A stretch of DNA of 63,992 nt, filler included, from Sandaracinaceae bacterium (GTDB lineage: Bacteria; Myxococcota_A; Polyangia; Polyangiales; JADJQN01): assembly GCA_947483975.1 (NCBI GenBank). It is 3 parts of 3 records of this genome, joined end to end, with 100 filler letters (N's around TTAATTAATTAA, not from the genome) between each part and the next. Parts side by side here need not be neighbours in the genome. Positions count along the whole stretch, not along the records: positions 27,409 to 54,406 come from CANKOL010000026.1; 2 more parts are not named here. One strand, written 5' to 3'. The notes beneath the pieces were generated by a model. It ran no database searches, was not told the DNA's origin, and was given only the letters and a program-made list of their open reading frames with translations. The position numbers were made by a program, and so were the translations under genes. Below, piece by piece: positions 26,483 through 54,506 of the stretch. How positions within the stretch are numbered: the first letter of the stretch is position 1; each line of letters starts with the position of its first letter.

Positions 26483-27308
26483 TCAGATCAGCACGCCGCC
26501 GATACCCGGCACGACGATGTAGACGTTGCGGAGGTCGAGCCGCGAGCCGCCCGGCACGTCGACGACCTCGATCTGCGCGCGGAAGATCTGCACGTACGCC
26601 TGCTGCGGCAGGAAGTCGTTCTGGAAGGTCACCTGGAAGGTGATCGTCGTGCCGCCCGCGACGCCGTAGAAGGTCGTCGCGTCGAACGTCGTCGCGCGCG
26701 TCGCGCGGAGCGGCGCGACCGCCTTGATGAAGAGCGTCGCGTCGACGGCGTCGCTCGTGTCGTCGAGGTTGTGCGAGGTGACGTCCTGCTGCGCCGCGCC
26801 GACGAGCGCGAGGACGCCATCGACGACCGAGGTGCTGACGGCGCCGCCCGGCACGTCGTAGACGGTGAGCGCGCCCGAGGACGACACGGAGCCCGTCGCG
26901 CGGGCAAGCTGCTCGAGATCCGCGCGCGCGGGCGTGAAGAAGAAGATCGGCACCGCGGCGCCGACGAGCTTGACCGCGCCGCCGGTGAGCGCCGCGACGG
27001 TCGTCGGCCAGTCGACCGCGGCGACGCCGCTGTAGGCGTTCGCGGGGTCCGAGTCGTTGTGCGCGTGCGCGTCGGTGACGACGACGATGATCGGGTAGCT
27101 GTCGCGCCGGAAGCACGCGCCGCCGAAGCCCGCGCCCGTCGCGCAGACGCCGCTCGCCGCGCCGTAGAGCCCCTCGAGCATCGCCTCGGGCTCGTCGTTG
27201 CCGCCGCCCGCGACGAGCGTGCCGAGCGCCGTCTGCACCGCGGGGACGCTCGCGGTCATCGTCTGGCGCGTGACGTACGAGAAGTCGCCGGGGCTGCCGT
27301 AGGGGTCG
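26483..27308 (-). CDS. C-terminal part of a vWA-like secreted protein (truncated by contig end)
   Basis: GGGNDEPEAMLEGL, PIIVVVTDA; frame open to the gap. Confidence 0.75.
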
Positions 27309-27408
27309 NNNNNNNNNNNNNNNNNNNNNNNNNNNNNNNNNNNNNNNNNNNNTTAATTAATTAANNNNNNNNNNNNNNNNNNNNNNNNNNNNNNNNNNNN
27401 NNNNNNNN
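27309..27408. other. Artificial contig linker
   Basis: 44 N + TTAATTAATTAA (stops in all six frames) + 44 N. Confidence 0.98.
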
Positions 27409-28066: not shown

Positions 28067-28726
28067 TCAGTCGTCGAAGCGCACGTTGTCCGCGAGGGGC
28101 GAGCGCGTCGTGCGCGCGGCGTTGACGGGCGCGCGCTCGTCCTCGTAGCCGAGCGCGATCCCGAAGAACAAGCCGACGTGCTCGTCCCACTTCAGAAACG
28201 GGCGCGCCGCGTCCGCCTGCGTCGCGAGCGCCGCCTGCGCGCACGCCGACACGCCCTCCTCCGTCGCCATCAGCAGCACGGACTGCAGCCAGCAGCCGAG
28301 GTCGATCGCCGCGTACGGCATCATGCGCTTGTCGAGCCCGACCATCGCGACGTGCGGCGCGTCGAAGCCGCGGTAGTTGCGCAGCCACGCCTCGTGCCGC
28401 CCCGCGTGGTCGCCGCGCGCGACGCCCATCGCCGTGTAGAGCGCGACGCCGCACTCCTTGCGGTGCTGCCCGTACGGCTCGGGGAACTCCGTCGGCCACT
28501 GAAAGTCACAGCCCGCGTTGCCCGCGAGCGCCGCGGCGACGAGGGCATCGGTGAGCGCGGTCTTCGCTGCGCCGCTCGTGACGACGACGCGCCAAGGCTG
28601 GACGTTGCACCACGACGGCGTCAGCTGCGCAGCCGAGAAGATCCGCTCGAGCGTCGCGCGCGGGACCTCGCGCTGCTGAAAGCCGCGCACGCTGCGCCGC
28701 TGGGTGAGTGCCTCGAAGACGTCCAT
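28067..28726 (-). CDS. Nitroreductase family protein
   Basis: RRSVRGF, PSWCNVQPW, FDAPH, GIALGY. Confidence 0.92.
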   Translation of the reverse strand: MDVFEALTQRRSVRGFQQREVPRATLERIFSAAQLTPSWCNVQPWRVVVTSGAAKTALTDALVAAALAGNAGCDFQWPTEFPEPYGQHRKECGVALYTAMGVARGDHAGRHEAWLRNYRGFDAPHVAMVGLDKRMMPYAAIDLGCWLQSVLLMATEEGVSACAQAALATQADAARPFLKWDEHVGLFFGIALGYEDERAPVNAARTTRSPLADNVRFDD

Positions 28727-28805
28727 CGTGCGCCGAGGGTAGCAGCGCCCGACGCGGCCCGCGCCCGGCCTTGACACGCCCCCGCGCAGCCCCGAGCCTC
28801 GGCGC

Positions 28806-29987
28806 ATGCGCCTCCGACCGCCCCACTCTGCTGCCAACCGCTCGTGGGCCCTCGCCTCCGCGCTCCTCATGTTGCTCTCGGCGAGCGCCTGCTCGACCGA
28901 GAGCGGGACGCGGCGGCACGGCACCTCCGACGGCGGCGTCACGCCCACCGATCTCGGCCCGCGCGCAGACCTCGCCGGGCTCGACCTCGGCCCCGCGCCG
29001 ATCTGCGAGACGACCGTCGCGACCGCCGAGCCGCGGCCGGCGACGCTCGTCTTTCAGCTCGACACGAGCGGCAGCATGAACTGCGACCGCGCCGCCGCGT
29101 CATGCCTCGTCGGCGACCCGACGCCCGCGCCCGACGACTCCCGCTGGGACGTGATGCGCACGGAGCTAGGCGCCGCGCTCGCGTCGCTCCCCGACTCGAC
29201 GCGCGCCGGCCTGCTGCACTACCCCTCGACGTTCAGCTGCGCCCCCTCGGACGCGCCGCCGCTCGTCGCCGTCGACGTGCTCTCGACGACGCGCGCCCTC
29301 ATCGCGGCGGCGACCGCGGCCCTCGCGCCGCAGGGCATCACGCCGACGCGCGACGCCGTCCAGGCGGCCCTCACCGTGCTCCGCGCGCGCCCCACGACCG
29401 AGGACCGCTACCTCCTGCTCGCGACCGACGGCGCCGCGACCGTCTGCCTCGGCTGCCGCGCCGACTGCTCCTACTCCGAGCTAGACGCCGACAACCTCGC
29501 GCTCGTCGACGACGTGCGCACGGCCGCGAGCGAAGGCATCCGCACCTTCGTCGTCGGCGTCCCGGGCTCGCAGGGCTACCGCGCGGTCCTCTCTCAGCTG
29601 GCGACCGCCGGCGGCTCCGCGCGCGCAGGCTGCTCCGACGCCGGCCCGCTCTACTGCCACTACGACCTCACCGACGCTTCCACAGACTTCGCGACCGGCC
29701 TCCGCGACGCGCTCGCCGCCATCGGCGGCGCCGTCGTCAGCTGCGACTACACGATCCCCGCAAACCCCGACGGAACCGCCTTCGATCCGACGTCCGTCAA
29801 CGTCGTCCTCTACGACGCCGCGGGCACCGAGACGGGCCGCCTCGCGCGCGACCCCGCCCGCGCCGACGGCTGGGACTACTCCGACGACCTGAGCCACATC
29901 GTGCTGCACGGCCCCGCCTGCGATAGCGCCCGCGCGACCGAGGGACGCGTGGAGGTGCAGTTCGGCTGCCCGACCGTGTTCCTCTAA
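28806..29987 (+). CDS. vWA-domain lipoprotein
   Basis: Lipobox SASAC; QLDTSGSM MIDAS; LATDG; C-terminal LHGPAC..FGCPT. Confidence 0.85.
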   Translation: MRLRPPHSAANRSWALASALLMLLSASACSTESGTRRHGTSDGGVTPTDLGPRADLAGLDLGPAPICETTVATAEPRPATLVFQLDTSGSMNCDRAAASCLVGDPTPAPDDSRWDVMRTELGAALASLPDSTRAGLLHYPSTFSCAPSDAPPLVAVDVLSTTRALIAAATAALAPQGITPTRDAVQAALTVLRARPTTEDRYLLLATDGAATVCLGCRADCSYSELDADNLALVDDVRTAASEGIRTFVVGVPGSQGYRAVLSQLATAGGSARAGCSDAGPLYCHYDLTDASTDFATGLRDALAAIGGAVVSCDYTIPANPDGTAFDPTSVNVVLYDAAGTETGRLARDPARADGWDYSDDLSHIVLHGPACDSARATEGRVEVQFGCPTVFL

Positions 29988-30062
29988 ACCGTGTTCCTCT
30001 AAACCGTGCTCCTCTAAACCGTGTTCCTCTAAACCGTGCTCCTCTAAACCGTGCTCCCCTAA
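29973..30062. repeat. Six tandem copies of 15-bp ACCGTGYTCCYCTAA
   Basis: Copies start at 29973, 29988, 30003, 30018, 30033 and 30048. Confidence 0.97.
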
Positions 30063-31609
30063 GCGCTCAGCGAGCGGTGCTTGGTCGCCTTCATGCCGAC
30101 CCAGTAGAGCCCGCCTGCGACCGCAAAGCCCACGAACCACGCGAACACGTACACCCAGTGCAGCGTCCAGTGGAGCGGGCCGACGAGCTTCACCTGCTCG
30201 AGAAACCCGGGCACGTTCGGCAGAATCCCCACGATCGTCGCGCCTACCGCGATCCAGTTGACGCCCGCGAACTTGCCATTGGGCCGATACAACTCCGGCA
30301 CATCGAGCGTCTGCTTTCGCAGCACCCAGTAGTCGATCAGCATGATCCCGCAGATTGGCCCGAGCAGCGCGCTGTAGCCGACGAGCCAGTCCATCACGCC
30401 GTGACTGACCAGCTTCCACGGCATGAACAGAAACCCAGCGACCGCCGTGATCAGCCCGCCCGTCTGAAACGAGATCTTCCGCGGCGCGAGGTTCGCGATG
30501 TCGTTGGCGGGCGACACGACGTTCGCCGCGATGTTGACCGAGATGCTCGCGACGCCGACGCCGACGACCCCGAGGAGCGCGACGAGCACGCGCGTCCCGC
30601 CCGACGCGAAGAGCGGCGCGTCGAGCCCCGGCGGCGGCGTCGCCGTCGTCATCCACGCGAGGATCTTCACCGGATCCCAGAGCGCGGCGAGCTCGTCGGG
30701 CGGCAGCCCGTGCAAGAGCGCGCGCGCCGCGCTCGTGATGATCACCGCCATCGCGGAGAACACGATCATCGTCGTCGGCAAGCCGAGCGCCTGCCCGAGC
30801 ATCTGCTCGCGCTGCCCCTTCCCGAAGCGCGTGAAGTCCGGGATGTTGAGCGCCAGCGTCGACCAGAAGCCGACGACGCCCGTCAGCCACGGGAGAAACA
30901 CCGCGAAGAACTTCGCGCTCGTGTCGAGCGTCGACGGCTGCGAGAGCATGTCGCCGAACCCGGCGCGCGCGACGACCCAGACGAGCAGCCCCGCCGCCAT
31001 CACGAGCACGAGCGGCGCCGCCCAGTTCTCGAACACGCGGAGGAACTCCATCCCGCGATAGATCACGAAGACGTTGAGCGCCCAGAACACGCTGAACGCG
31101 AGCATATGCGGGAGCGGATAGCCGAGGATCTCGAGCCCTCCGCCGAGACGTCCCCAGCCGGGCCAGATCGCCTCGACCACGGTCGACACCCCCTCACCGC
31201 CGAAGTAGCAGTTGATGCCGAACCAGCCGCACGCGACGACCGCGCGCAGCATCGCGGGGAAATTCGCGCCCGTCGTGCCGTAGGACGCGCGCGCCAGCAC
31301 GGGGAACGGCAGCCCATACTTCGTGCCCGGGTGCGCGTTGAGCAGGATCGGCACGAGGACGAGCATCGTGCCGACACCGATGGTGCAGAGCGCCTGCCAC
31401 CAGCTCATCCCCGCCGCGATCATCCCGCCCGCGAGCGTGTACGTCGGGATGCAGTGGCACATCGAGATCCACAGCGCCGCGAACGAGTACGTGTTCCACG
31501 TGCGGCGACTCGGCGGCACGGGCGCGAGATCCGCCGAGAAGAGCGGCGAGGTCGCGATGTCCGGCGGCAGCAGCGCCAGAGCTTCAGCGGCGAGCGAAGG
31601 GTCGTGCAT
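30059..31609 (-). CDS. NCS1 nucleobase:cation symporter
   Basis: DLAPVPPSRRTW, HPGTKYGLPFPVLARAS, CGWFGI, LALNIPDFTRF, NIAANVVSPAND. Confidence 0.95.
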   Translation of the reverse strand: MHDPSLAAEALALLPPDIATSPLFSADLAPVPPSRRTWNTYSFAALWISMCHCIPTYTLAGGMIAAGMSWWQALCTIGVGTMLVLVPILLNAHPGTKYGLPFPVLARASYGTTGANFPAMLRAVVACGWFGINCYFGGEGVSTVVEAIWPGWGRLGGGLEILGYPLPHMLAFSVFWALNVFVIYRGMEFLRVFENWAAPLVLVMAAGLLVWVVARAGFGDMLSQPSTLDTSAKFFAVFLPWLTGVVGFWSTLALNIPDFTRFGKGQREQMLGQALGLPTTMIVFSAMAVIITSAARALLHGLPPDELAALWDPVKILAWMTTATPPPGLDAPLFASGGTRVLVALLGVVGVGVASISVNIAANVVSPANDIANLAPRKISFQTGGLITAVAGFLFMPWKLVSHGVMDWLVGYSALLGPICGIMLIDYWVLRKQTLDVPELYRPNGKFAGVNWIAVGATIVGILPNVPGFLEQVKLVGPLHWTLHWVYVFAWFVGFAVAGGLYWVGMKATKHRSLSA

Positions 31610-31672
31610 GGTGCGCGCGAGGATATCCGAGACGCAGCCGCCTCGATATCGTCGCGCGCCCCGCGGCCGGGC

Positions 31673-33673
31673 TCAGTTGATGCGGCTGAGGTTCATGCCC
31701 GCCGCGTAGGCGTAGCTGACGAACGCATCGAAGCCGGTGACGACGACCGCGACCGGCAGGTCGGAGACGAGCGTGTGCACGCCGTCGTTCTGCTCCCCAT
31801 CCTCGACGCGCACGTTCGGCAAGCCGATGACGTCCGGGTAGCTCAGCTGACAGCGATACACGAGGTAGGTCGGCGGCGGATCGCCCGCGCGACGCACGAC
31901 GCCATCCCCGGGGCTCGCAGTGCACTCAGGGGGAAGCGGCGAGCCATCGAGCATGATGCGCGCGGCGGCCGGCGCCATGATCGTGAGGAAGTCGAACGCG
32001 TACTGGTCGGGCGTCAAGAGGACGTAGTCCTGACGCCACTGCGCGATCGGCGGCACGATGATGATCGACGGGTCGCCGCCCGGGTAGTAGTTCGGGATGC
32101 CCGTCGCCTCTTGGCTGCTGATCGCCTGCAGCACCGCGACAGGGCGGTCGGCGGTCATCTGGAAGTCCTGGTCCGCGCGCAGGATGACGTCCTCCCGCGG
32201 GTACACGACGACGACGTCGTTCGGCGGCGGGAGCGTCGTGCGGATGGTCGTCGTGTCGCTGATGGCCACGATGCGCACCCACTCAGGCTCGTTGACCTCG
32301 GCGACGCTGTCCGCGAGGGGGTTGAGGAAGGCGGCGTTGAGCGCGTTCGTGCGACGCGGCGCGCGCCCGATGACGAAGTCCGTGCCGAGCGTGGAGTCCG
32401 GCGCGAGCTGCTCCTCGAGGTGATCGGCGCAGCACTGCCGCGTCGCGAGCGTCCCGAAGCGCGGCGCGTCCGACGCCTCGCTGCCGACGTAGACGATGAC
32501 GGGCTTGTCGGCGTCCACGATCGAGCCCGTGAAGTCCGCGTTGAACGCCTGCGTCTCGAGGTTGAGCACGTCGTACGGCCCGAGCGTGACGTGGACGACC
32601 TCGCCCCCGCCGAGGTAGGTGCCCGGCGTCAGCCCGACGACCTGAATCGACTGCGCGCCGAGGTCGACGCTGACGGTCGTGCCCTCTTGCGTGCCGACGA
32701 TGGTCAGGAACGCGCGGAGGTCTTCGTCGGTCACCGAGGGGTCGAAGTCAGTCTCGGGGTTCGTCGAGTTCGCGATCGTCTGCGGCCAACCGACGACCGT
32801 GTAGTGCCCGTCGACGCCGGACGTCGGGATGAGGAGCGAGGCGTCGTTCGAGAACACGCCGACGTTGTCGAGCGGGTTGAACTGATACGCGACGATCGGC
32901 AGCGTGGACTTCACGCGATAGGCGGCCGAGGTGAGCGCGGTGTGCGAGCCCTCGCTGATGCCCGCCATGAGCCCGCGCGCCGTGCGGCCATCCACCTCGC
33001 GCTGCGGCAGCAAGAAGACCTCGAGGTCGCCCGGCAGCACGGTCTGACGGTCGACCTCAGTCTCCGCGACCGGCGCGCCGGGGGCCGCGTCGTTCTGCGT
33101 GATGACGACCTCGGTCGCGACCGTGCCCGCGTTCGACACGACGACCGCGTACTGCTGCGCCGAGGCGTCGCGCCCCGCGCCGAGCGAGGCGTTGTCGAGG
33201 TCTACCGCGAAGAACTCGCAGCCCTGATAGCTGCGCGTGCGCGTCGCGACCTCGCAGAGGTTCTGACAGGCGCCGTCCTGACACGCGAAGCCCGCGCTGA
33301 GGTCGCACACCTCGCTGACGTCCCAGCCGCTGCCGTCCGCGCGGCACACGGCCGCGTCCCCGTTGAAGCAGCCGACCTCGCCCGGGCGGCACACCACGCA
33401 CCAGAGATTCGGCACGCAGATCCGCCCATCGAGCCCGCAGTCGAGGCCGCGCTGCGAGAGGAACTCGCCGTCCCGCACGCAGCTCCTGTAGACGTTCCCG
33501 TCGCAGGCTTGGTCCGCCTCCGACTGACACACGAAGCTGCCGTCGATGAACGGCGAGTGCGCGTCGCTCGCGCCGCCGTCCATATGAGGAGGGACGACCG
33601 GGCCCTTCGTGCAGGCCATGAACAACGCCCCGGCGAGCACCGTGAGCGCGAGTGAAACGAGGATGTTGCGCAC
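31673..33673 (-). CDS. IgGFc-binding-domain lipoprotein
   Basis: Lipobox FMAC; SYQGCEFFAVDLDN, AYQFNPL, SNDASLLIP, DHLEEQL, GDPS, SYAYAAG. Confidence 0.88.
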   Translation of the reverse strand: MRNILVSLALTVLAGALFMACTKGPVVPPHMDGGASDAHSPFIDGSFVCQSEADQACDGNVYRSCVRDGEFLSQRGLDCGLDGRICVPNLWCVVCRPGEVGCFNGDAAVCRADGSGWDVSEVCDLSAGFACQDGACQNLCEVATRTRSYQGCEFFAVDLDNASLGAGRDASAQQYAVVVSNAGTVATEVVITQNDAAPGAPVAETEVDRQTVLPGDLEVFLLPQREVDGRTARGLMAGISEGSHTALTSAAYRVKSTLPIVAYQFNPLDNVGVFSNDASLLIPTSGVDGHYTVVGWPQTIANSTNPETDFDPSVTDEDLRAFLTIVGTQEGTTVSVDLGAQSIQVVGLTPGTYLGGGEVVHVTLGPYDVLNLETQAFNADFTGSIVDADKPVIVYVGSEASDAPRFGTLATRQCCADHLEEQLAPDSTLGTDFVIGRAPRRTNALNAAFLNPLADSVAEVNEPEWVRIVAISDTTTIRTTLPPPNDVVVVYPREDVILRADQDFQMTADRPVAVLQAISSQEATGIPNYYPGGDPSIIIVPPIAQWRQDYVLLTPDQYAFDFLTIMAPAAARIMLDGSPLPPECTASPGDGVVRRAGDPPPTYLVYRCQLSYPDVIGLPNVRVEDGEQNDGVHTLVSDLPVAVVVTGFDAFVSYAYAAGMNLSRIN

Positions 33674-33674
33674 T

Positions 33675-35786
33675 TTAGTTCGCCTGAGCAGTGAAGAAGT
33701 CGACCGCGCTCTTTTCCCAATAGCGGTCGCTCAGATACGCATAGCTGAACGTGTCGAAGTCGAAGCCCGGGATCGTCACGGCGTAGACCTGCCAGACGAT
33801 GTCGCCCGTCGCGATGTCGGCGACGCCGAGCGGCGTGGTGTCGGGGATCGGCGCCTCGTAGACATTGCCCGGCAGGAACTGCCGCCAAGCGGGGTTGCCG
33901 TCGCCGCCGCTCATCAGGAGCACGTGCAGGCTCGGCGTCGGGCCATCCGCGGTCCAGCGCAGGATACGGTCCGCGGGGAGCGGCGCGCCGTACTCGGGCG
34001 AGGTCGCCGTCGGGATGCCGAGGAAGCCGTTCATCGCGATCGGGCGATCCACGCCGACGATGCCGGTGCGCACGATCTGCGTGTACGGCAGGCTGTCGTA
34101 GTCGCCCGTGAACCAGCCCGCCTCGACGCGGTAGCGGCCATCCGAGAGCGCGTCGAAGAGCGCCGGCTGCGAGACGAGGCGGAACGGCCCGTCGTTGCTG
34201 CGCCGGCGGAGCGTGTCGATCTCGACGCCGTTGACGACGCGGACGATCACGCCCTCGCCGCCGAGGTCCACGGCCGCGCGCACCTTGTAGCGGTTCGGGC
34301 CGCTGCGCGCCGACGCCGGCAGCTCAGTCATCACGACGTCGACCGAGCGGTCGAGCGTGATGTTCATGATCATGTCCTGGTCGACGATCTCCTCGCCGGG
34401 GCCGGCGAGGACGTTGCGCGCGATGCCCATCACGTACGGGATGAACTCGCCCGTCGTGGTGTTCTCGAGGCCCGAGAGCGCGTAGACGGCCATGCCGCCG
34501 GGGCGGACGAAGATGCGGTACGGATAGCCGCGCTCATCGGCGGGGAGCGGGTCGGCGATCTCCTCGAGGACGCGCTGGATCGCGCCGCCCGACGCCGGAT
34601 CCGGGTTCGTGACGTCGACGCTCGGCTGCGTCGCGTAGACGTAGGCGACCTTGATCTCGTTGGCGCGCGCGGGCGGGATGTTGAGCCACGGGTTCGGCGA
34701 GAACTCGCTCGGTCCGCGCCAGATCAGCGAGCCGCTGATGAAGGACCCGCTGCGACCGCGCCCAGGCGGCGGCGTGCCCGAACCCATCCCGCACATCGGG
34801 TCGGTCCACGGCACGAGGAACATCGTCACATCGCTCGCGTCCGCGGCGACGAACGTCGTCTTCTCGAAGCAGAACTTGCTGCCCGTGACGACCTGCGCGC
34901 CCATCAGGTCCGCGCCCGAGAACGTGATGCGCCCGCCGACGTCGGTGTCGCCGACGTACGGCCCGCCGACGTTGCCGAGGAAGACGGTCGCGCCGTCGAC
35001 CGGGTCACCCGTCGTCGCGTTGAGCACGGTGACGTTGACGCTCCCGTTGACGGGCCCGCCGCCGAGGCCGCCACCGAAGGGATCGGAGGTGTCGTAGTAG
35101 GTGTAGGCGTCCGGCGCGACGAGCGTCGAGCCATCGGCGGTGTGCGTGACGGTGACGTCCACCGTGCTCGCCGAGAGCGGCGGCGTCTTGCAGGTGATGC
35201 GCGTCGGCGAGACGACGGCGATCTCCGTGCACGCCGAGCGGCCGAAGGTGACCGTGTCGCCCGTGGTGAAATTCGTGCCCGAGCCGACGATGCTGACGAA
35301 GGTTCCGCCCGCGACCGAGCCGCGCTCGGGCTCGACGTAGATGGCGTCGTAGGTGTAGCCCGCCGGCAGCGTGACCGACGCGTCGCCGAGCGTGATCGCG
35401 ACGTCGGCCGGGCCGACCTCACCCGCGGGCACGACGACCTGCAGGCGGCGCGAGTCGATCAGCTCCATGTCCGCCGGCTGCACCATGCGCCCCGCGAACG
35501 TGACGACCGCGTCGAGCGAGAAGCCGCTGCCGCGCAGCACGACGGTGTTGCCGCCGCGGTACGGGCCGTGATCCGGCACGACGCGCGTGATCAGCAGCTC
35601 GCCCATCCCGATGCCCGTGTCCGGGAACATCGGGCCGAGGTCCTCGGTGACCGGTCCGCCGTCGGGCGGGGGCAAGCCGAGGTCGAGGTCCATCGCGATG
35701 GGATTGGTCCGGCCGCAGCCATCACAGCCGCCCCCGAACACCATCGCGAGCACGAGCAGGCCACCTATCGTCGAACGGCGCATCAT
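33675..35786 (-). CDS. IPT/TIG-domain secreted protein
   Basis: Two IPT/TIG units (VVPDHGPYRGGNTVVLRGSGF; VEPERGSVAGGTFVSIVG), then beta-rich domains. Confidence 0.85.
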   Translation of the reverse strand: MMRRSTIGGLLVLAMVFGGGCDGCGRTNPIAMDLDLGLPPPDGGPVTEDLGPMFPDTGIGMGELLITRVVPDHGPYRGGNTVVLRGSGFSLDAVVTFAGRMVQPADMELIDSRRLQVVVPAGEVGPADVAITLGDASVTLPAGYTYDAIYVEPERGSVAGGTFVSIVGSGTNFTTGDTVTFGRSACTEIAVVSPTRITCKTPPLSASTVDVTVTHTADGSTLVAPDAYTYYDTSDPFGGGLGGGPVNGSVNVTVLNATTGDPVDGATVFLGNVGGPYVGDTDVGGRITFSGADLMGAQVVTGSKFCFEKTTFVAADASDVTMFLVPWTDPMCGMGSGTPPPGRGRSGSFISGSLIWRGPSEFSPNPWLNIPPARANEIKVAYVYATQPSVDVTNPDPASGGAIQRVLEEIADPLPADERGYPYRIFVRPGGMAVYALSGLENTTTGEFIPYVMGIARNVLAGPGEEIVDQDMIMNITLDRSVDVVMTELPASARSGPNRYKVRAAVDLGGEGVIVRVVNGVEIDTLRRRSNDGPFRLVSQPALFDALSDGRYRVEAGWFTGDYDSLPYTQIVRTGIVGVDRPIAMNGFLGIPTATSPEYGAPLPADRILRWTADGPTPSLHVLLMSGGDGNPAWRQFLPGNVYEAPIPDTTPLGVADIATGDIVWQVYAVTIPGFDFDTFSYAYLSDRYWEKSAVDFFTAQAN

Positions 35787-35865
35787 GGACTCCTGCATCG
35801 GAAAACCTCGCATCAAGCTAGTGGCTTCCTAGCGAGTATCGGGTTACCACCAGCCAAGTCAAGCT

Positions 35866-36969
35866 ATGCCCCTGCTCCGCCTGGTGGTGAGCGACCTGCA
35901 TCTGGGCACCGGAGTGCGGCAGGGCGAGCTCAATCCGTTTGAGGATTTCCTCCACGACGACCGCTTCGCGGAGCTGCTCGCGCACTACGACGCGGAGGCG
36001 GGCGCGGACACCGAGACGGAGCTCGTCCTCAACGGCGACATCTTCGATCTGCTCAAGGTGAAGGTCGAGGGCGAGTGGCCGCTCGAGATCACCGCCGAGG
36101 TCGCCGTCGAGAAGCTGCGGCAGTGCCTCGACGGGCACCCGCGCTTCGTCAACGCCCTGCGCGAGTTCCTCGAGAAGCCCTCGCGGCGCCTGACGTACAT
36201 CCCCGGCAACCACGACCTCGATATGTGGTTCCCCGCGACGCACGAGCTGTTCCGGCGCCGAGTCGCGCCGGGCGTCCTCGGCGAGCGTGTCCGCTTCATC
36301 ACGCAGACAGACACCTATCATCTGCCCGAGGGCATCCAGATCCGGCACGGGCATCAGCTCGAGCGCATCCATCGCGTCGACTACGCGCGCATGACGCGCA
36401 AGCGCCGCGACGGGCGCGACGTGCTCGATCTGCCGTGGGGCACGCTCTGGATCCTCGAGGTGCTCAACCCCGCGAAGGAGGAGCGCAGCTACATCGACCG
36501 CATCCAGCCGCTGTCGCGCTTTCTCGCCGCGGGGCTGCTCTTCGACACGAGCTTCTCGGTGCGCTTCCTGGCGCGCTCGACGTTCCACTTCATGCGCCAT
36601 CGCATCTTCACGATCCGCGCGTGGAGCGAGCGCATCCGCAACGTGTTCACGCTGCTGCGCGAGGAGATCGTCGCGCTCGGCGGCTATGACGAGCTTGCGA
36701 CGCGGGCGCTCCGGCGAGTGCGCGGGGTGCACACGCTGATCGTCGGGCACAGCCACTCGCCGCGGTTCCGCGCGATGCCGGGCAACAAGGTGCTCGTCAA
36801 CAGCGGCACCTGGATGAAGATGATCAACCTCGACCTGCGCCACCTCGGGCAGGACAGCGGGCTCACCTACGTCGTCATCGACTACACGACCGACGGCAAG
36901 CCGCGCACCCGCCTGATGCGGTGGAACGGCACCACCCTGCCCTGCGAGACCATCTTCTACGCGGACTGA
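35866..36969 (+). CDS. Calcineurin-like metallophosphoesterase
   Basis: SDLHLG, NGDIFD, PGNHD, HGH, GHSH. Confidence 0.9.
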   Translation: MPLLRLVVSDLHLGTGVRQGELNPFEDFLHDDRFAELLAHYDAEAGADTETELVLNGDIFDLLKVKVEGEWPLEITAEVAVEKLRQCLDGHPRFVNALREFLEKPSRRLTYIPGNHDLDMWFPATHELFRRRVAPGVLGERVRFITQTDTYHLPEGIQIRHGHQLERIHRVDYARMTRKRRDGRDVLDLPWGTLWILEVLNPAKEERSYIDRIQPLSRFLAAGLLFDTSFSVRFLARSTFHFMRHRIFTIRAWSERIRNVFTLLREEIVALGGYDELATRALRRVRGVHTLIVGHSHSPRFRAMPGNKVLVNSGTWMKMINLDLRHLGQDSGLTYVVIDYTTDGKPRTRLMRWNGTTLPCETIFYAD

Positions 36970-37278: not shown

Positions 37279-39552
37279 TCAGCGCTCCCTCGTCCGCCGG
37301 AGGCACGCCCCGAGCAGCGCGAGGAGCGCCTCGTGGGTCGGCGGCTCCCGTAGCTCGACCTCGAGCTCGAACGCCGCCTCAGCCTCGCGAACCCGAGTGA
37401 CGGTGGCGCGCTCGTCACGGAGCGCAGCGGCGACCCACGCAGAGGCCGCGCGCGCAGCCGGCGATTGCCTGTCGAGGCGCGCCCGCACCCACGCGGCGAG
37501 GCGCGCGAACGACGAGCCGACGTCCGCATCGACCCGCGCCGACACCGGCGCGGCGGACGCAGCGTAGATCCCGACCGACAGCCCGACGCGGCCCGCGTCC
37601 GGCACCCGCAGCCCGAGCACGACCGCGTGCGGCGAGCGGCTCAGGTGCAGCGTCGTCCCGTCATCGAGAAGCTCCGCCGCGCGCGCGTCGCGGTAGCCGC
37701 CAGCGCCCTCCTGCCGCGCGAGCCGCGCGAGCACCTCGCGCGCGACGGCGCTCTGCTCACGCCGCAGCACCTCGCGCTGCGCGGCGGCCGAGGGCGGCGG
37801 ATACGGCACCGCGCAGCGCGTCGTCACGCCGTTCGAGCGCCCGAGCGCGAGCGTCCCATCGGGGGCGAAGCAGACGACGGCGGCGAGGTCCTCGGCGTCG
37901 AGCGTGACGGGCGGCGCGTCCGAGTGCGGATCGAAGACGCAGACCGGGCTCGCGAAGGCCGCGCAGGCGAGGTGCCCGTCGGCGTCGAACGCGAGGCACT
38001 CCACGAGCGCGAGGTCGTAGGCGCGGCGCTGCGTCCCGCTCGCGAGGTCGTGCACGAGGACCTGCCCATCGAGCCGATACGCGAGCCAAGGCGCGTGCTG
38101 CGCGAAGGCGAGCGCACCACAGCACGTCGCCTTCGCGGCGAAGACCTCGCGCCCGGTCGCGACCTCGTGCACGACGACGCGGTCACGCCCGCCGAGCGAC
38201 GCGAGCAGCACGCCGTCGCGCGACCACGCGAGCGCGCCCGCCCAGAAGTGCCCCGGCTCCTTGGAGGGCGCCGTCAACTCCTGCAGCGCCTCGCCGGTCA
38301 GCGGATCGCGCAGCACCACCGACCCGGCGCGGCAGAGCGTCGCGAGCCAGGCGCCCGCTGGGTCGAAGGCGACAGCGGCGAGGTCGCGGCCGTCGTGCGC
38401 GTTCGGGACCGCGCTCCGACGCTCGCCCGTGCCGACGTCGAAGAGGCGCAGCGTGCCGTCCATGCCGCCGCTCGCGAGCAGCGCGTCGTCGACTGAGAGC
38501 GAGAGCGAGGCGACGTAATTGGCGTGGCCGGGGATGGCCCGGAGGTGCTCGCCGGACTCGCTCGCCCAGAGGTTCACCGTCTTGTCGTGGCCGCCCGCCG
38601 TGGCGAGCAGCGCGCCAGCCGAGCTGAAGGCGAGCGACGACACGCCCGAGCCGTGCCCGGGCGGCGTCGGGAGCGGCGACTCGCCTCCCGGCTCGAGGAC
38701 GCGCGCGTGCCGATACGCCGCGGCGACGAGCCCCCCACCCGGCCTCGCGGCGACCGACGCGCGGCCACCGCGGGGCGAGACCTCGTCAGCGCGAAGCGCT
38801 CCGGTCCGCACGTCGACGAGCGCCACTGGCCCGCTCAACGAGTGCCGCACCCAGAGCTCTGCGCCGTCCGCCATGAAGCCGAACGACTCCAGCTCGAACG
38901 GCAGCCGGAGCACGCGCGCGGGCTCGTCGCCGACGAAGCACGAGAGCGCATCGGAGCCCGCCGCCGCGACCACGAGCAGGTCCTCACGCGGCGAGAACGC
39001 GACCTCCACGCGGCGCCCCGCGCGCTGCGGCTGCGCACGGCGCACCTCGCCGCCGCTCCGCGCGTCGACCACGACCGCGTGCGCGCTGCCGCCGACGGCG
39101 AGCCACCGCGAGTCGCGCGAGAACGAGAGCCCGACGAGGTGCGCGACGTCGTGCCCCACCGCGCCTAGCTCCCGCCGGCTCTCCACGTCGAAGAGCACGA
39201 CCTCCCACGCGTCGAACTTCGCGCGCCCCGCGGCGAGCGTGCGCCCGTCGGGGGACAGCGCGACGGGCGAACTGAGGTCGGCGCTCGGAAGGGCTTGCGT
39301 CACCTCCGGCGCGCCGACGGTCCACGAGAACACTCGCCCGTACGCGAGCCAGAGCGTCCCGCCATCCCGCGAGAACGCGAGGCTGTGCGCGGCTTGCCGC
39401 ACCCGCGCGACGAGCCGCCCCTCGGGGAGCGTCCAGACCGCTGTCTCCACATTCGACCCGAGCGCGACGAGGCGCCCGTCCGGCGACACCTCCACGGCGT
39501 CGATGTCCGCGTGGAGCCGGAGCCGGTCATCTCCGTATTGCAGCGCGCGCAC
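37279..39552 (-). CDS. WD40-repeat protein
   Basis: GHGSGVSSLAFS, GHANYVASLSLS..GTLRLFD and SPDG repeats; GTG 39552 chosen from the TACGCT box. Confidence 0.85.
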   Translation of the reverse strand: MRALQYGDDRLRLHADIDAVEVSPDGRLVALGSNVETAVWTLPEGRLVARVRQAAHSLAFSRDGGTLWLAYGRVFSWTVGAPEVTQALPSADLSSPVALSPDGRTLAAGRAKFDAWEVVLFDVESRRELGAVGHDVAHLVGLSFSRDSRWLAVGGSAHAVVVDARSGGEVRRAQPQRAGRRVEVAFSPREDLLVVAAAGSDALSCFVGDEPARVLRLPFELESFGFMADGAELWVRHSLSGPVALVDVRTGALRADEVSPRGGRASVAARPGGGLVAAAYRHARVLEPGGESPLPTPPGHGSGVSSLAFSSAGALLATAGGHDKTVNLWASESGEHLRAIPGHANYVASLSLSVDDALLASGGMDGTLRLFDVGTGERRSAVPNAHDGRDLAAVAFDPAGAWLATLCRAGSVVLRDPLTGEALQELTAPSKEPGHFWAGALAWSRDGVLLASLGGRDRVVVHEVATGREVFAAKATCCGALAFAQHAPWLAYRLDGQVLVHDLASGTQRRAYDLALVECLAFDADGHLACAAFASPVCVFDPHSDAPPVTLDAEDLAAVVCFAPDGTLALGRSNGVTTRCAVPYPPPSAAAQREVLRREQSAVAREVLARLARQEGAGGYRDARAAELLDDGTTLHLSRSPHAVVLGLRVPDAGRVGLSVGIYAASAAPVSARVDADVGSSFARLAAWVRARLDRQSPAARAASAWVAAALRDERATVTRVREAEAAFELEVELREPPTHEALLALLGACLRRTRER

Positions 39553-39698
39553 GGGGGGAGCGTACGCCACGCGCGCGAGGGCGTCATTGGCCGAGGCGAG
39601 GTCCGCGCGGTCGGGCGATGTGTGAGTTTTTTTTCTGCGGCGTGAATGGCGCGCTTCCGGCTGCGTCAAAACGAGAGAGAGCGCCGCCCCACGGAGCG

Positions 39699-39814
39699 CT
39701 TTTCATCAAGACGGGTGGAGGGACAGGCCCTGCGAAACCCGACCAACCGACCGCGAAGCGGCACGGTGGCAAAGCCTGAAAACGAGGTCCACCGACCTCG
39801 TCCACGATGGAAGG
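39699..39814 (+). ncRNA. SAM-I (S-box) riboswitch, translational type
   Basis: P1 CTTTTCATC/GATGGAAGG; J1/2 AAGA; P2 CGGGT/ACCCG with GGAG/CGAA kink-turn and GGGACAGGCCC; P3 CCAACC..GGTGG; L2 CAGG pairs with J3/4 CCTG; P4 ACGAGGTC/GACCTCGT. Confidence 0.88.
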
Positions 39815-39822
39815 AGGCACTC

Positions 39823-40482
39823 ATGGCGACAGACGAAGATTGCGAATCCGATGATGTGTTGGTGACGTGTGGCCGCCGTTGGCGGGCCGACGGAATCCCG
39901 GTCAACTCCTATCGATGCGGCTGGAACCGCATCCGAGCGCGCGTCGCCGCCGGAGACGTGCGACTCACACGCAATCTCGGGAGAGTCGGCACCGGGATCA
40001 GCGTGTCACTCGACGAGCTCGAACCGCTGATCACCCTCCTGCGCTGGTACGGGACGCAGCGCCTGAGCTGGTCAGCGTTCTATTGGTCGGGGCATGGCCA
40101 CGTGCCCGGCTGGGGCTGCGCTGGGGCGTACTACCAGCCCCCCGGCGACGCGCGACAGGTCGAGGTCGCCTCGAAGGCGTACGGCAAGCTACGGGGGGAG
40201 GACTTCACCGGAGAAGACGTGCGCATCCGCGTGGACCCGCCCGAGCGCGTCGCCGACGTGGCCGACCTCGTCGCGCGGATCGTGCGGAAGGGCGAGCGAT
40301 TCGGCAATCGCGCGGGCGAACAGGTCGGGGCCGTCTATCACCTCGGCACGCTGGTCATCGACGCCAAACGCATGGAGCTCGTTCTCCAGCGCGGGAAGGA
40401 GTGGATCTCGCTCGAGGATGGCGAGGACTTGTTCCTCGAGCGTCTGCTCTCCATCGAGCGGGCCCTCGCCTCCTCGCGCTGA
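39823..40482 (+). CDS. Hypothetical protein (219 aa) downstream of SAM riboswitch
   Basis: AAGGAGG RBS at 39811-39817, ATG 39823; no motif recognised. Confidence 0.75.
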   Translation: MATDEDCESDDVLVTCGRRWRADGIPVNSYRCGWNRIRARVAAGDVRLTRNLGRVGTGISVSLDELEPLITLLRWYGTQRLSWSAFYWSGHGHVPGWGCAGAYYQPPGDARQVEVASKAYGKLRGEDFTGEDVRIRVDPPERVADVADLVARIVRKGERFGNRAGEQVGAVYHLGTLVIDAKRMELVLQRGKEWISLEDGEDLFLERLLSIERALASSR

Positions 40483-40595
40483 GCGAGCGCGGGGCGCCGC
40501 ACGAACCTAGCGACCGTCGCGCGTGGCGGTGATCGCGGCCGAGGACCTCGGCCACGGAGTCACCGTCACGCTCGATGGAACCACCTATTCGGCGC

Positions 40596-42116
40596 TCAGA
40601 AGAAGCCGAGCTTGCTCTCGCTGTAGCTGACCAGCAGGTTCTTGGTCTGTTGGTAGTGATCCAACATCACCTTGTGCGTCTCGCGCCCGATGCCCGACTC
40701 CTTGTAACCACCGAACGCCGCGTGCGCGGGATAGGCGTGATAGCAGTTCGTCCAGACGCGCCCGGCCTTGATCGCGCGGCCCATGCGATAGGCCACGTTG
40801 CCATTGCGACTCCACACTCCGGCGCCTAGCCCATAGGCGGTGTCGTTGGCGATGGACAAGGCCTCTGCCTCGTCCTTGAAGGTCGTGACCGCGAGCACGG
40901 GGCCGAAGATCTCCTCTTGGAAGATCCGCATCTTGTTGTGGCCCTTGAACAGCGTGGGCTGGACGTAATAGCCACCTCCGAGCTCACCCTCGAGCTGCGC
41001 CTGTTCGCCGCCGATCAGCACCTCGGCGCCCTCCGCCTTACCAATCTCGAGATAGGAGAGGATCTTGGCGAGCTGCTCCTTCGACGCCTGCGCGCCCATC
41101 ATCGTGTCGGTGTCGAGCGGAGAGCCGTGCTTGATGGCCGCGACTCGCGCGAGGACGCGCTCCATGAAGCGCTCGTAGATGCTCTCTTGGATCAGGGCGC
41201 GCGACGGGCAGGTGCAGACTTCGCCCTGGTTGAAGGCGAACAGCACCAAGCCCTCGATCGCCTTGTCGAGGTAGCCGTCGTCCTGGTCCATCACATCCGC
41301 GAAGAAGATGTTGGGCGACTTGCCGCCTAGCTCCAGCGTCGCGGGGATCAGGTTGGTGGCGGCCGCCTGCGCGATCACGCGCCCCGTCGCCGTCGAGCCG
41401 GTGAACGCGATCTTGGCGATGCGCTTGCTGGTAGCGAGCGGCAGGCCGGCCTCACGCCCGTAGCCATTGACGATGTTGAGGACTCCGGGCGGCAGCAGAT
41501 CGGCGATCAGCTCCGCGACGATCAGGATGCTGATCGGCGTGGACTCCGCCGGCTTGAGCACCACGCAGTTGCCCGCGGCGAGCGCCGGGGCGAGCTTCCA
41601 CGCGGCCATCAGGATCGGGAAATTCCAGGGGATGATCTGCCCGACGACGCCGAGCGGCTCGTGCAGGTGATACGCGACGGTGGTCTCGTCGAGCTGGCTG
41701 AGGGCGCCCTCTTGGGCGCGCACGCAGCCCGCAAAATAGCGGAAGTGATCGATCGTCAGCGGGATGTCGGCGTTGAGCGTCTCGCGGATCGGCTTGCCGT
41801 TGTCCACCGTCTCGGCGTAGGCGAGCAGCTCGAGGTTGGCCTCGAGGCGATCGGCGATCTTGAGCAGGGCGTTGGAGCGGTCCGTCGGGGAGGTCTTGCC
41901 CCACGCATCGGCGGCCGCGTGCGCCGCGTCGAGCGCGAGCTCGATATCCGCCGCCGTCGAGCGCGCGGCCTGCGTGTAGACCTTGCCGCTCACCGGCGTG
42001 ATCACGTCGAAGTACTGCCCGTCGACCGGCGCGACGAACTTGCCGCCGATGAAATTGTCGTAGCGGGGCTTGTAGGTGAGCTTGGCTCCTGCGGAGCCTG
42101 GGGCGGCGTAAATCAT
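40596..42116 (-). CDS. aldB: NAD-dependent aldehyde dehydrogenase (AldB/ExaC/AcoD type)
   Basis: [37 protein letters not shown]. Confidence 0.95.
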
Positions 42117-42194
42117 CTGTGTCTCCCGAGCGGTGATGAGGGGTGTGGAGGGCGCGCCCCGAGGGTCACGCCAACCGTTCGCGCGGCGTGCTTG

Positions 42195-42210
42195 AGCACG
42201 GTGTGTGCCA
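42195..42210 (-). promoter_or_regulatory. sigma54 promoter of aldB
   Basis: Minus strand TGGCACACACCGTGCT (GG-N10-GC); divergent activator; TGTC-N11-GACA at 42287-42305 is a candidate UAS. Confidence 0.75.
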
Positions 42211-42444
42211 GTCCGTCGAATGAGCCGTGAATGGCGCCGGCGCGGTCGAAACCCACCCTGCGCGTCCGTCCGGGGCATACGCGCGCTGTCTCGCGCCACA
42301 GGACAGGCTGTGTCGAAACGGAACAACCTCCGCCCCAATCCGGGTCAAATCGGCCTGGGCGCTGTGGCACAATCCCCGATGCGCGGGCCCGCGGCGAGAG
42401 AGGCTGCGCGCGCGCTGCACACCCGATCGAGGAGACGAGCGACG

Positions 42445-54406: not shown

Positions 54407-54506
54407 NNNNNNNNNNNNNNNNNNNNNNNNNNNNNNNNNNNNNNNNNNNNTTAATTAATTAANNNNNNNNNNNNNNNNNNNNNNNNNNNNNNNNNNNNNN
54501 NNNNNN
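54407..54506. other. Artificial contig linker
   Basis: 44 N + TTAATTAATTAA + 44 N. Confidence 0.98.

Follow-up and report, generated by a model that had tools for sequence, protein, structure and literature searches.

The window analysed here, a stretch of 63,992 nucleotides of DNA from a Sandaracinaceae bacterium of the Myxococcota (assembly GCA_947483975.1), joins several contigs of an assembly that is 81% complete by runs of N. Wholly within one of these contigs (G000:C26), it carries an S-adenosylmethionine (SAM) riboswitch aptamer of the SAM-I class directly followed by an open reading frame (ORF) of 219 codons, whose product is named P0001. The aptamer (39700-39813, plus strand) matches the Rfam family RF00162 at 61.8 bits (gathering score 44.4, E-value 6.6e-12) over model positions 1-108, which is the whole model, and it is the sole Rfam match above threshold in the 63,992 bases. 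The ORF, also on the plus strand (39823-40482, stop codon included), starts with an ATG at 39823, nine bases past the end of the aptamer, and stops with a TGA at 40480-40482. The initial annotation had placed a SAM-I riboswitch before a 219-residue ORF with a strong ribosome-binding site, and both features hold.

A SAM-I aptamer that shares bases with the ribosome-binding site

The closing helix of the aptamer, P1, is formed by a 5′ strand reading UUUUCAUC (39700-39707, plus strand) that pairs with a 3′ strand reading GAUGGAAG (39806-39813, plus strand) at eight of eight positions, including G-U pairs. The Shine-Dalgarno (SD) sequence of the ORF, GGAAGGAGG (39809-39817, plus strand), begins within this 3′ strand: its first five nucleotides lie inside P1, and a spacer of five nucleotides separates its end from the ATG. 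The same arrangement was found at 14 of 15 loci that carry a relative of P0001 (such loci are hereafter called family loci). In these 14, the P1 3′ strand reads GAUGAGGA, GAUGGAGG, GAUGGAAG or similar. At 14 of the 15, too, a purine-rich stretch that resembles an SD (GAGGA, GGAGG, GGAA or GAGAG) lies in this strand or follows it directly, and the ATG stands 4-11 nucleotides 3′ of P1, a helix of six to eight pairs. A separate expression platform is not predicted, nor is there room for one between P1 and the ORF, and a scan of the aptamer-to-ORF interval returned no terminator-like site. The alignment of 12 family-locus aptamers contains 23 predicted pairs, eight of which keep pairing despite changes on both sides, as exemplified by columns 15-43, which form a CG pair in seven aptamers and a GC pair in five. 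By this measure, the aptamers are under selection as RNA.

This architecture suggests a putative expression platform in which the P1/SD overlap itself would couple ligand to gene. Since the SD overlaps the P1 3′ strand, binding of SAM by the aptamer should lock P1 and mask the ribosome-binding site, turning translation off; upon a fall in SAM, P1 should open and free the SD, and the 219-residue protein would be made. Production of the protein when SAM falls, as the initial annotation had proposed, is therefore what the layout of P1 and SD implies. That the locus forms a self-contained "low-SAM" expression module, switched off in the presence of SAM, is very probable. The position of the aptamer in one lineage of family loci (g133), where it begins 13 nucleotides after a co-oriented MerR gene, fits a switch acting at the level of translation within a longer mRNA. 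Two observations speak against too simple a version of this scheme. At one family locus (G343, L012) the design differs, with a hairpin and an SD located about 50 nucleotides downstream. In the window itself, only five of the nine SD bases are inside P1, and masking may hence be partial. A scan of the locus for a sigma-70-type promoter gave no match, which says little for this phylum. Searches of five family genomes for further classes of SAM or SAH riboswitch (RF01057, RF01725 and RF00521) returned nothing either, an uninformative result, as the control genomes were also devoid of any match.

SAM-I riboswitches normally control genes for the synthesis or transport of methionine, cysteine or SAM. 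The aptamer of the window resembles a classical SAM-I (S-box) element by its full-length, above-threshold match to RF00162 and by the compensatory changes in its pairs, and SAM is likewise expected to turn expression off. It differs from the usual members of the class in that it precedes no methionine, cysteine or SAM gene and in that the P1 3′ strand doubles as part of the SD. In PMC545781, the S-boxes of delta-proteobacteria are described as having terminator hairpins downstream, unlike the design observed here. Altogether, the riboswitch class and the principle of masking are known; the cargo is unprecedented and the regulon unusual.

The ORF is flanked upstream by a divergent gene encoding a WD40 protein of 796 residues (37279-39669, minus strand) and downstream by a convergent aldehyde dehydrogenase gene (40596-42338, minus strand), beyond which lies a gene for an AcoR-like sigma-54 activator. 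With one neighbour divergent and the other convergent, the ORF is alone on its strand, in agreement with the initial description of a monocistronic gene between oppositely oriented flanks. The same description had the locus at the edge of an accessory-looking region, and this stands only in part. Over window positions 28068-36969, the gene order is collinear with that of a genome of the same genus (G001), and the synteny breaks right after a Metallophos gene, just before the WD40 gene. Within that collinear part, a stretch (28736-31673) that contains a cytosine/purine permease gene (30059-31609, minus strand) is missing from G001, where its flanks join directly (L049, 1685 to 1708). The runs of N in the window (at 27308-27408 and near 54505, 176 N in total) mark joins across which features are not to be read.

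A rare protein family tied to its riboswitch

P0001 has no match at E≤10 in Pfam or NCBIfam, which places it, as had been claimed, outside the known families of methionine and SAM metabolism. PADLOC-DB 2.0 gave no match at E≤1 for P0001 or for three other proteins searched with it (P0006, P0018 and P0036), and the search of the same four against PHROGs at E≤1 returned three weak matches (E 0.014-0.41), one each for three of them, all to families of unknown function; the sole match of P0001 is among these (E 0.014). Matches to nanobodies in a profile search of PDB sequences were weak (best E 0.012) and were taken as spurious. A word-indexed search with P0001 retrieved two relatives; 1.84 billion representatives were then scanned in full with HMMER, which gave 67 at E≤1e-3, 40 of them at E≤1e-10. 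Apart from a few fragments, nearly all of the 67 are 210-245 residues long and match end to end. No fused or longer form of the family was found, the long "members" being artefacts: P0045 has a mis-called start and P0070, a repeat protein, is a false match. Members of the family clusters are either nameless or annotated as "hypothetical protein".

Conservation extends down to about 25-30% identity. In an alignment of 56 members (A1), the near-invariant residues are R50, G53, W76, R80, W83, G108, G125, G130, G157, G169, R183 and L208; R36 and R155 are kept in 88-89% of the sequences, E158 in 80% and E198 in 89%. None of the conserved positions is a Cys, His, Asp, Lys or Ser. This bears on the sulfur or redox role that might be read from the four Cys of P0001 and from its WSGHGHVPGWGCAG segment, to which the initial annotation had drawn attention: Cys7, Cys16, Cys32 and Cys99 are kept in only 2, 1, 2 and 6 of the 56 aligned homologues, and in the WSGHGHVPGWGCAG segment His91 is kept in 2 and His93 in 12, the family consensus there being S..G.P.G.G. 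A role of that kind finds no backing in the family.

The ratio of nonsynonymous to synonymous substitution rates (dN/dS) was 0.31-0.50 in a codon-level analysis of six pairs, a sign of purifying selection together with fairly fast evolution. Metatranscriptome contigs, from two libraries of two studies, cover parts of the locus. One match spans 39752-39901 without mismatch and bridges the 3′ part of the aptamer, the SD and the start of the ORF, and another spans 39849-40053 with one mismatch. Such contigs show neither ends nor strand, and the lack of cover over 39300-39751 and 40054-40595 proves nothing. Because RNA libraries can contain DNA, a caveat that weakens the case for expression, they are a hint of transcription and not proof. 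Positions 39300-40900 of the window or close variants occur in about 18 freshwater or lake-water metagenome runs of about nine studies, of which four runs were aligned to the locus; the host thus seems to recur in fresh waters. One freshwater DNA run holds a strain variant, about 98% identical, in which indels are found solely outside the aptamer and the ORF. By all the sequence comparisons above, the ORF is evidently a real, conserved gene of a rare and unnamed family, seen so far in Myxococcota.

The association between this gene and the riboswitch was assessed on loci gathered via the protein alone, in three ways: a search with the single protein in 61 relatives; a search with the A1 profile in 401 genomes of the phylum (seven candidates scored per genome) and in the same 61 relatives; and a degenerate DNA pattern for the coding motif WAAFY..G.P.G.G, run over genome and metagenome collections, with members confirmed by hmmsearch. 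Of the 14 matches to the DNA pattern, five had arisen by chance, with no family gene present (L024, L033, L035, plus L025, marginal at E 3.5e-4). The 15 distinct loci that resulted are G000 (the window), G013, G037, G343, G122, G135, G189, L022, L023 (= L034), L026, L027 (= L032), L028, L029, L030 and L031. The last of these ends before its upstream DNA and was excluded, leaving 14 assessable loci. Directly upstream of the family gene, RF00162 scores above the gathering score in 13 of them (49.8-63.1 bits) and at 41.0 bits, below it, in the other (L028); not one of the 14 lacks the aptamer. Co-occurrence of riboswitch and homologues, a check that the initial annotation had put forward, is thus strict. 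G124 holds a sixteenth member, a distant one (hhalign probability 90%), which came to light via its riboswitch and is left out of these counts.

The pairing also holds from the side of the RNA. RF00162 was detected above the gathering score in three of the 61 relatives, which are exactly the three with a match to the family profile (58 have none), and all eight family genomes checked contain a single RF00162 match each. To note, two sub-threshold matches occur among the 61 relatives, in L080 (G007:C37) and L079 (G057:C57), at 41.4 and 44.1 bits. In both, the SD likewise falls within P1, and the orphan ORFs that follow have 182 and about 100 residues, with a Uma2 protein, a DUF2397 protein, a SNF2/ResIII helicase and a HAD_SAK_2 protein among the neighbouring gene products. 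The family is rare, being matched in six of the 401 phylum genomes and three of the 61 relatives, and its gene was not found in the same-genus genome G001, which is 94% complete. Such patchiness argues against a core regulator of methionine genes, and as such it is a point against a regulatory role of that breadth for P0001. Riboswitch and gene would rather travel together as an accessory unit, with variable neighbours and sometimes as the head of a short operon.

The nearest published precedent found is DseA of Desulfovibrio vulgaris, described in bioRxiv 10.1101/803072 as a SAM-I riboswitch that precedes the small hypothetical gene DVU1170 and also targets the sahR mRNA. The two systems share a SAM-I element placed before a monocistronic hypothetical protein gene instead of a methionine gene, as well as a link between riboswitch and homologues across species. 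They differ in that DVU1170 is 189 nucleotides long (about 62 residues) and is located 129 nucleotides downstream of a terminator-type switch, and in that DseA also works in trans as a small RNA. The window, on the other hand, encodes a protein of 219 residues with a predicted fold, under a control predicted to be translational and without a terminator. By analogy with DseA, the riboswitch RNA of the window could itself be the main product, a trans-acting small RNA to which the ORF is secondary, and some Myxococcota aptamers do precede ORFs of merely 24-38 residues. We find this hardly credible. The ORF is conserved down to the identity levels given above, is under purifying selection and encodes a protein with a confidently predicted fold; no terminator is present that would set a short RNA free; and the placement of the SD in P1 ties SAM directly to translation of the ORF.

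A predicted PUR-like fold

The AlphaFold2 model of P0001 computed with A1 is of high confidence (predicted local distance difference test, pLDDT, 94.8; predicted template modelling score, pTM, 0.90). It consists of five strands and a helix, followed by about ten strands and a second helix. A wide structural alignment, independent of Foldseek, ranked Drosophila Pur-alpha first (3k44_A; Z 8.2, root mean square deviation (rmsd) 3.6 Å, 123 residues aligned). Two cyanobacterial proteins without assigned function came next (2it9, Z 6.8, and 2nvn, Z 5.9), and MRP1/2, a protein of SsgA-like type and PBF-2, which is a Whirly protein, ranked lower. When the top 1000 Foldseek entries were re-compared, five PURA/Pur-alpha repeat I-II entries stood out with Z values of 9.1, 8.2, 7.7, 7.5 and 7.2, the next unrelated fold having a Z of 3.4. 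These five alignments take in most of the PUR I-II domain (111-123 of its roughly 141-144 residues), with an rmsd of 3.3-3.5 Å. Sequence identity in the structural alignments with PUR entries is 10-14%.

The model fits, with insertions, the definition that PMC7549692 gives of a type I PC4-like domain, and the core of the protein would be such a domain: a β-β-β-β-α unit occurring twice, with extra strands in the second half. As in PUR-alpha/PURA repeats I-II, in the account given there, a sheet-plus-helix repeat is found twice in one chain, together with conserved Arg and aromatic residues. There is no sequence similarity to PUR-alpha, and the halves of P0001 are unequal, the first having five strands and the second about ten, which amounts to large insertions. 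Arg and Trp residues are conserved and the median isoelectric point (pI) across the family is 9.1 (above 8 in 33 of 56 members), both of which fit nucleic-acid binding. Judged by the model, binding of single-stranded DNA or RNA is the most likely activity of P0001, and its role would be regulatory or protective instead of enzymatic. A bacterial example of such a function is Bpur/BpuR of Borrelia burgdorferi, a small PUR-fold protein reported to bind DNA and RNA and to modulate transcription and translation (PMC3764826, PMC6736767). It resembles the role proposed for P0001 as a nucleic-acid-binding regulator and differs from it by having a single repeat and dimerising (type II in PMC7549692), by the absence of any riboswitch from the abstracts on it and by showing no detectable sequence kinship.

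Several results count against this assignment. Foldseek gave no match at E≤1e-3 in PDB or BFVD; a best Z of 7-8 is what models that lack a clear Foldseek match typically reach; 16 strands are present in the model where a PUR domain has eight; and the Pfam PUR families do not match the sequence of P0001 at E≤10. Because it does not belong to these families by sequence, P0001 is called here PUR-like and not a PUR protein. Nor is P0001 itself basic, with a pI of 6.3, and 15 of the 56 members have a pI below 6.5. The ESM Atlas contained no usable match for the family protein. On balance, we consider it rather probable that the locus as a whole is a portable, SAM-repressed translational module encoding a single-strand nucleic-acid-binding protein of a new family.

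The fold also bears on whether P0001 could be an unrecognised protein of methionine or SAM metabolism, much as the initial annotation had put forward; it might be an enzyme, or it might carry or bind some metabolite related to sulfur or SAM. Genes of this metabolism are the normal targets of SAM-I riboswitches and follow five of the 24 found in the phylum (see below), and R50, R80, R155, R183, E158 and E198 could form a site for a carboxylate or phosphate ligand. Yet the near-invariant positions are limited to Arg, Trp, Gly and Leu, without a conserved Cys, His, Asp, Lys or Ser; the fold is PUR/PC4-like rather than enzyme-like; the protein falls outside Pfam and NCBIfam; no methionine gene stands beside the family gene at any locus examined; and the family was not found in most of the 61 relatives. 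A metabolic role is very doubtful on these grounds, and that of an enzyme is disfavoured.

Variable neighbours and the use of SAM-I riboswitches in the phylum

Genes of defence systems adjoin the family gene at four of the 15 distinct loci. In G013, a HEC-05/GmrSD-like gene (E 5e-81) of the same orientation lies 34 nucleotides downstream of it; another GmrSD-like gene and the gene of a PDC-S28 helicase (E 3.8e-235) come next, and a bpMoxR-vWA pair stands in divergent orientation. In G343 it stands among McrBC, a PIN toxin and PDC-S01; in L022 it is adjoined by a GajA-like ATPase gene, and in L028 an AbiEii gene (E 1.5e-90) is directly upstream. The other surroundings are diverse. An IS91 transposase domain adjoins the family gene in L027, a tRNA gene is located 134 nucleotides downstream in L029, an ADP-ribosylglycohydrolase gene follows the distant member in G124, and an ORF of 302 codons without assigned function starts six nucleotides after the family gene in G037. 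The gene order in the g133 lineage is vWA, MerR, aptamer and family gene. No defence gene neighbours the family gene in the window, in G037 or in the g133 lineage. In a matched control, all ORFs filtered by G+C content at third codon positions (GC3) from six family loci were compared with those from 13 segments, each 8 kb long and placed at fixed offsets within the same genomes (PADLOC, E≤1e-10). Specific matches were obtained at two of the six family loci, versus one clear (BREX) and two weak cases among the 13 controls; matches to a kinase (PD-T4-6) and to a sigma-54 activator (RtcR-like) were generic in both sets. As the control shows no enrichment, a claim of enrichment in defence islands was dropped, and the association of the family with such islands is suggestive only.

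Two further observations on these neighbourhoods may be mentioned. A BREX-type cluster (PglZ, BrxD, BrxHI; E down to 7e-280) is present at L081 (G013:C2:81400-89400), on the same contig as the family gene of G013 and 40 kb from it; it came to light because this region was one of the random controls. Besides, MoxR, vWA and beta-propeller components recur near the family gene: the WD40 gene in the window (37279-39669, minus strand), bpMoxR and VWA_2 in G013 (L036, 8905-11933, plus strand), and vWA in the g133 lineage (L039, 6020-7336, plus strand; L040, 5854-7308, plus strand). Because such genes are common in these genomes, this recurrence may be due to chance.

In the light of these neighbours, the module could be a SAM-depletion alarm within a conflict system: a collapse of SAM, caused for example by a phage SAM lyase, would release an effector or adaptor that blocks nucleic-acid transactions of the phage or the host, or would switch on the nuclease genes that follow. 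The defence genes at the four loci named, the IS91 domain and the tRNA gene would be consistent with this, as would the variable partners placed after the gene (nucleases in G013, ADP-ribosylglycohydrolase in G124, the 302-residue product in G037), the patchy distribution, the synteny break and the fairly high dN/dS of 0.3-0.5. On the other side stand the matched control, with two of six loci against one clear and two weak of 13 and thus no demonstrable enrichment, the loci without a defence neighbour, which include that of the window, and P0001 itself, which has no PADLOC match and no feature of a nuclease, a pore or an NADase. The literature search returned no paper linking a SAM riboswitch to defence and nothing relevant on SAM riboswitches in Myxococcota. 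A function in conflict is a possible reading, albeit an unlikely one.

A survey of 151 genomes of the phylum puts the module in a wider context. RF00162 was found in 22 of them, with 24 matches in all and nearly always one per genome. Five of the 24, with long leaders, precede genes for pyridoxal phosphate (PLP) enzymes of cysteine and methionine metabolism, homoserine dehydrogenase/MetX or MetK. Four belong to the P0001 family and one to its distant member in G124, and most of the others show the SD-in-P1 design before ORFs without a Pfam family. The lone SAM-I riboswitch in this phylum thus usually precedes orphan ORFs and not methionine genes. A second orphan family (A3), with proteins of 166-213 residues and a G[FW]AH motif, was identified in four genomes (L053, L059, L060, L061). 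By hhalign it is unrelated to the P0001 family (probability 0.1%), and its AlphaFold2 model (pLDDT 62.6) is of too low confidence for a fold search. Further cargo of the same design comprises a Cys-rich protein of 128 residues in two genomes, a 259-residue protein with a weak match to HTH_31 (helix-turn-helix), an ORF of 112 codons and ORFs of 38 and 24 codons (loci L062, L063; L065; L068; L057; L067; L019; L020). In G151, finally, an aptamer scoring 66.5 bits heads an apparent operon (L078, G151:C41, 1375-6087, minus strand) that comprises a MoxR-type AAA+ ATPase gene (AAA_5/bpMoxR) and ORFs of 155 and 464 codons, the latter with a weak DUF2201_N match, as well as a divergent homologue of S-adenosylmethionine synthetase (MetK). 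A Mu-like portal gene adjoins this operon.

From this diversity, a broader version of the conflict hypothesis may be drawn. Myxococcota might use the lone SD-in-P1 SAM-I riboswitch as a portable sensor signalling that SAM has collapsed, placed before interchangeable cargo (besides the PUR-like family, two or more further orphan families, a protein of HTH-like type, micro-ORFs and the operon with a MoxR ATPase and a MetK-like gene). The cargo of the window would then be a conflict effector or adaptor set off by a phage SAM lyase as it depletes SAM. If nucleases follow, as with the GmrSD-like pair of G013, it would license them only once methylation of the host DNA could no longer be sustained. 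This proposal is speculative and quite unlikely to hold as a whole; if true, it would constitute the first riboswitch-gated immune trigger that reads the metabolite targeted by a phage counter-defence.

The reading that we favour, a SAM-repressed module for a PUR-like protein with a putative regulatory or protective role, has its own implications. A riboswitch regulon is normally taken to chart the metabolism of its own ligand. Here, a textbook SAM-I aptamer is tied, at all 14 assessable loci, to a family without metabolic signature and with a fold of nucleic-acid-binding type. With only five of the 24 SAM-I matches of the phylum located before methionine genes, this points to an undescribed use of SAM sensing, whether in regulation, stress or conflict. 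The new protein family comes with a confident model and is ready for study by structural and RNA biologists. The system is also compact and testable, consisting of an RNA of about 125 nucleotides and one protein of 219 residues, and it could show how a cell responds to the loss of SAM beyond the synthesis of methionine.

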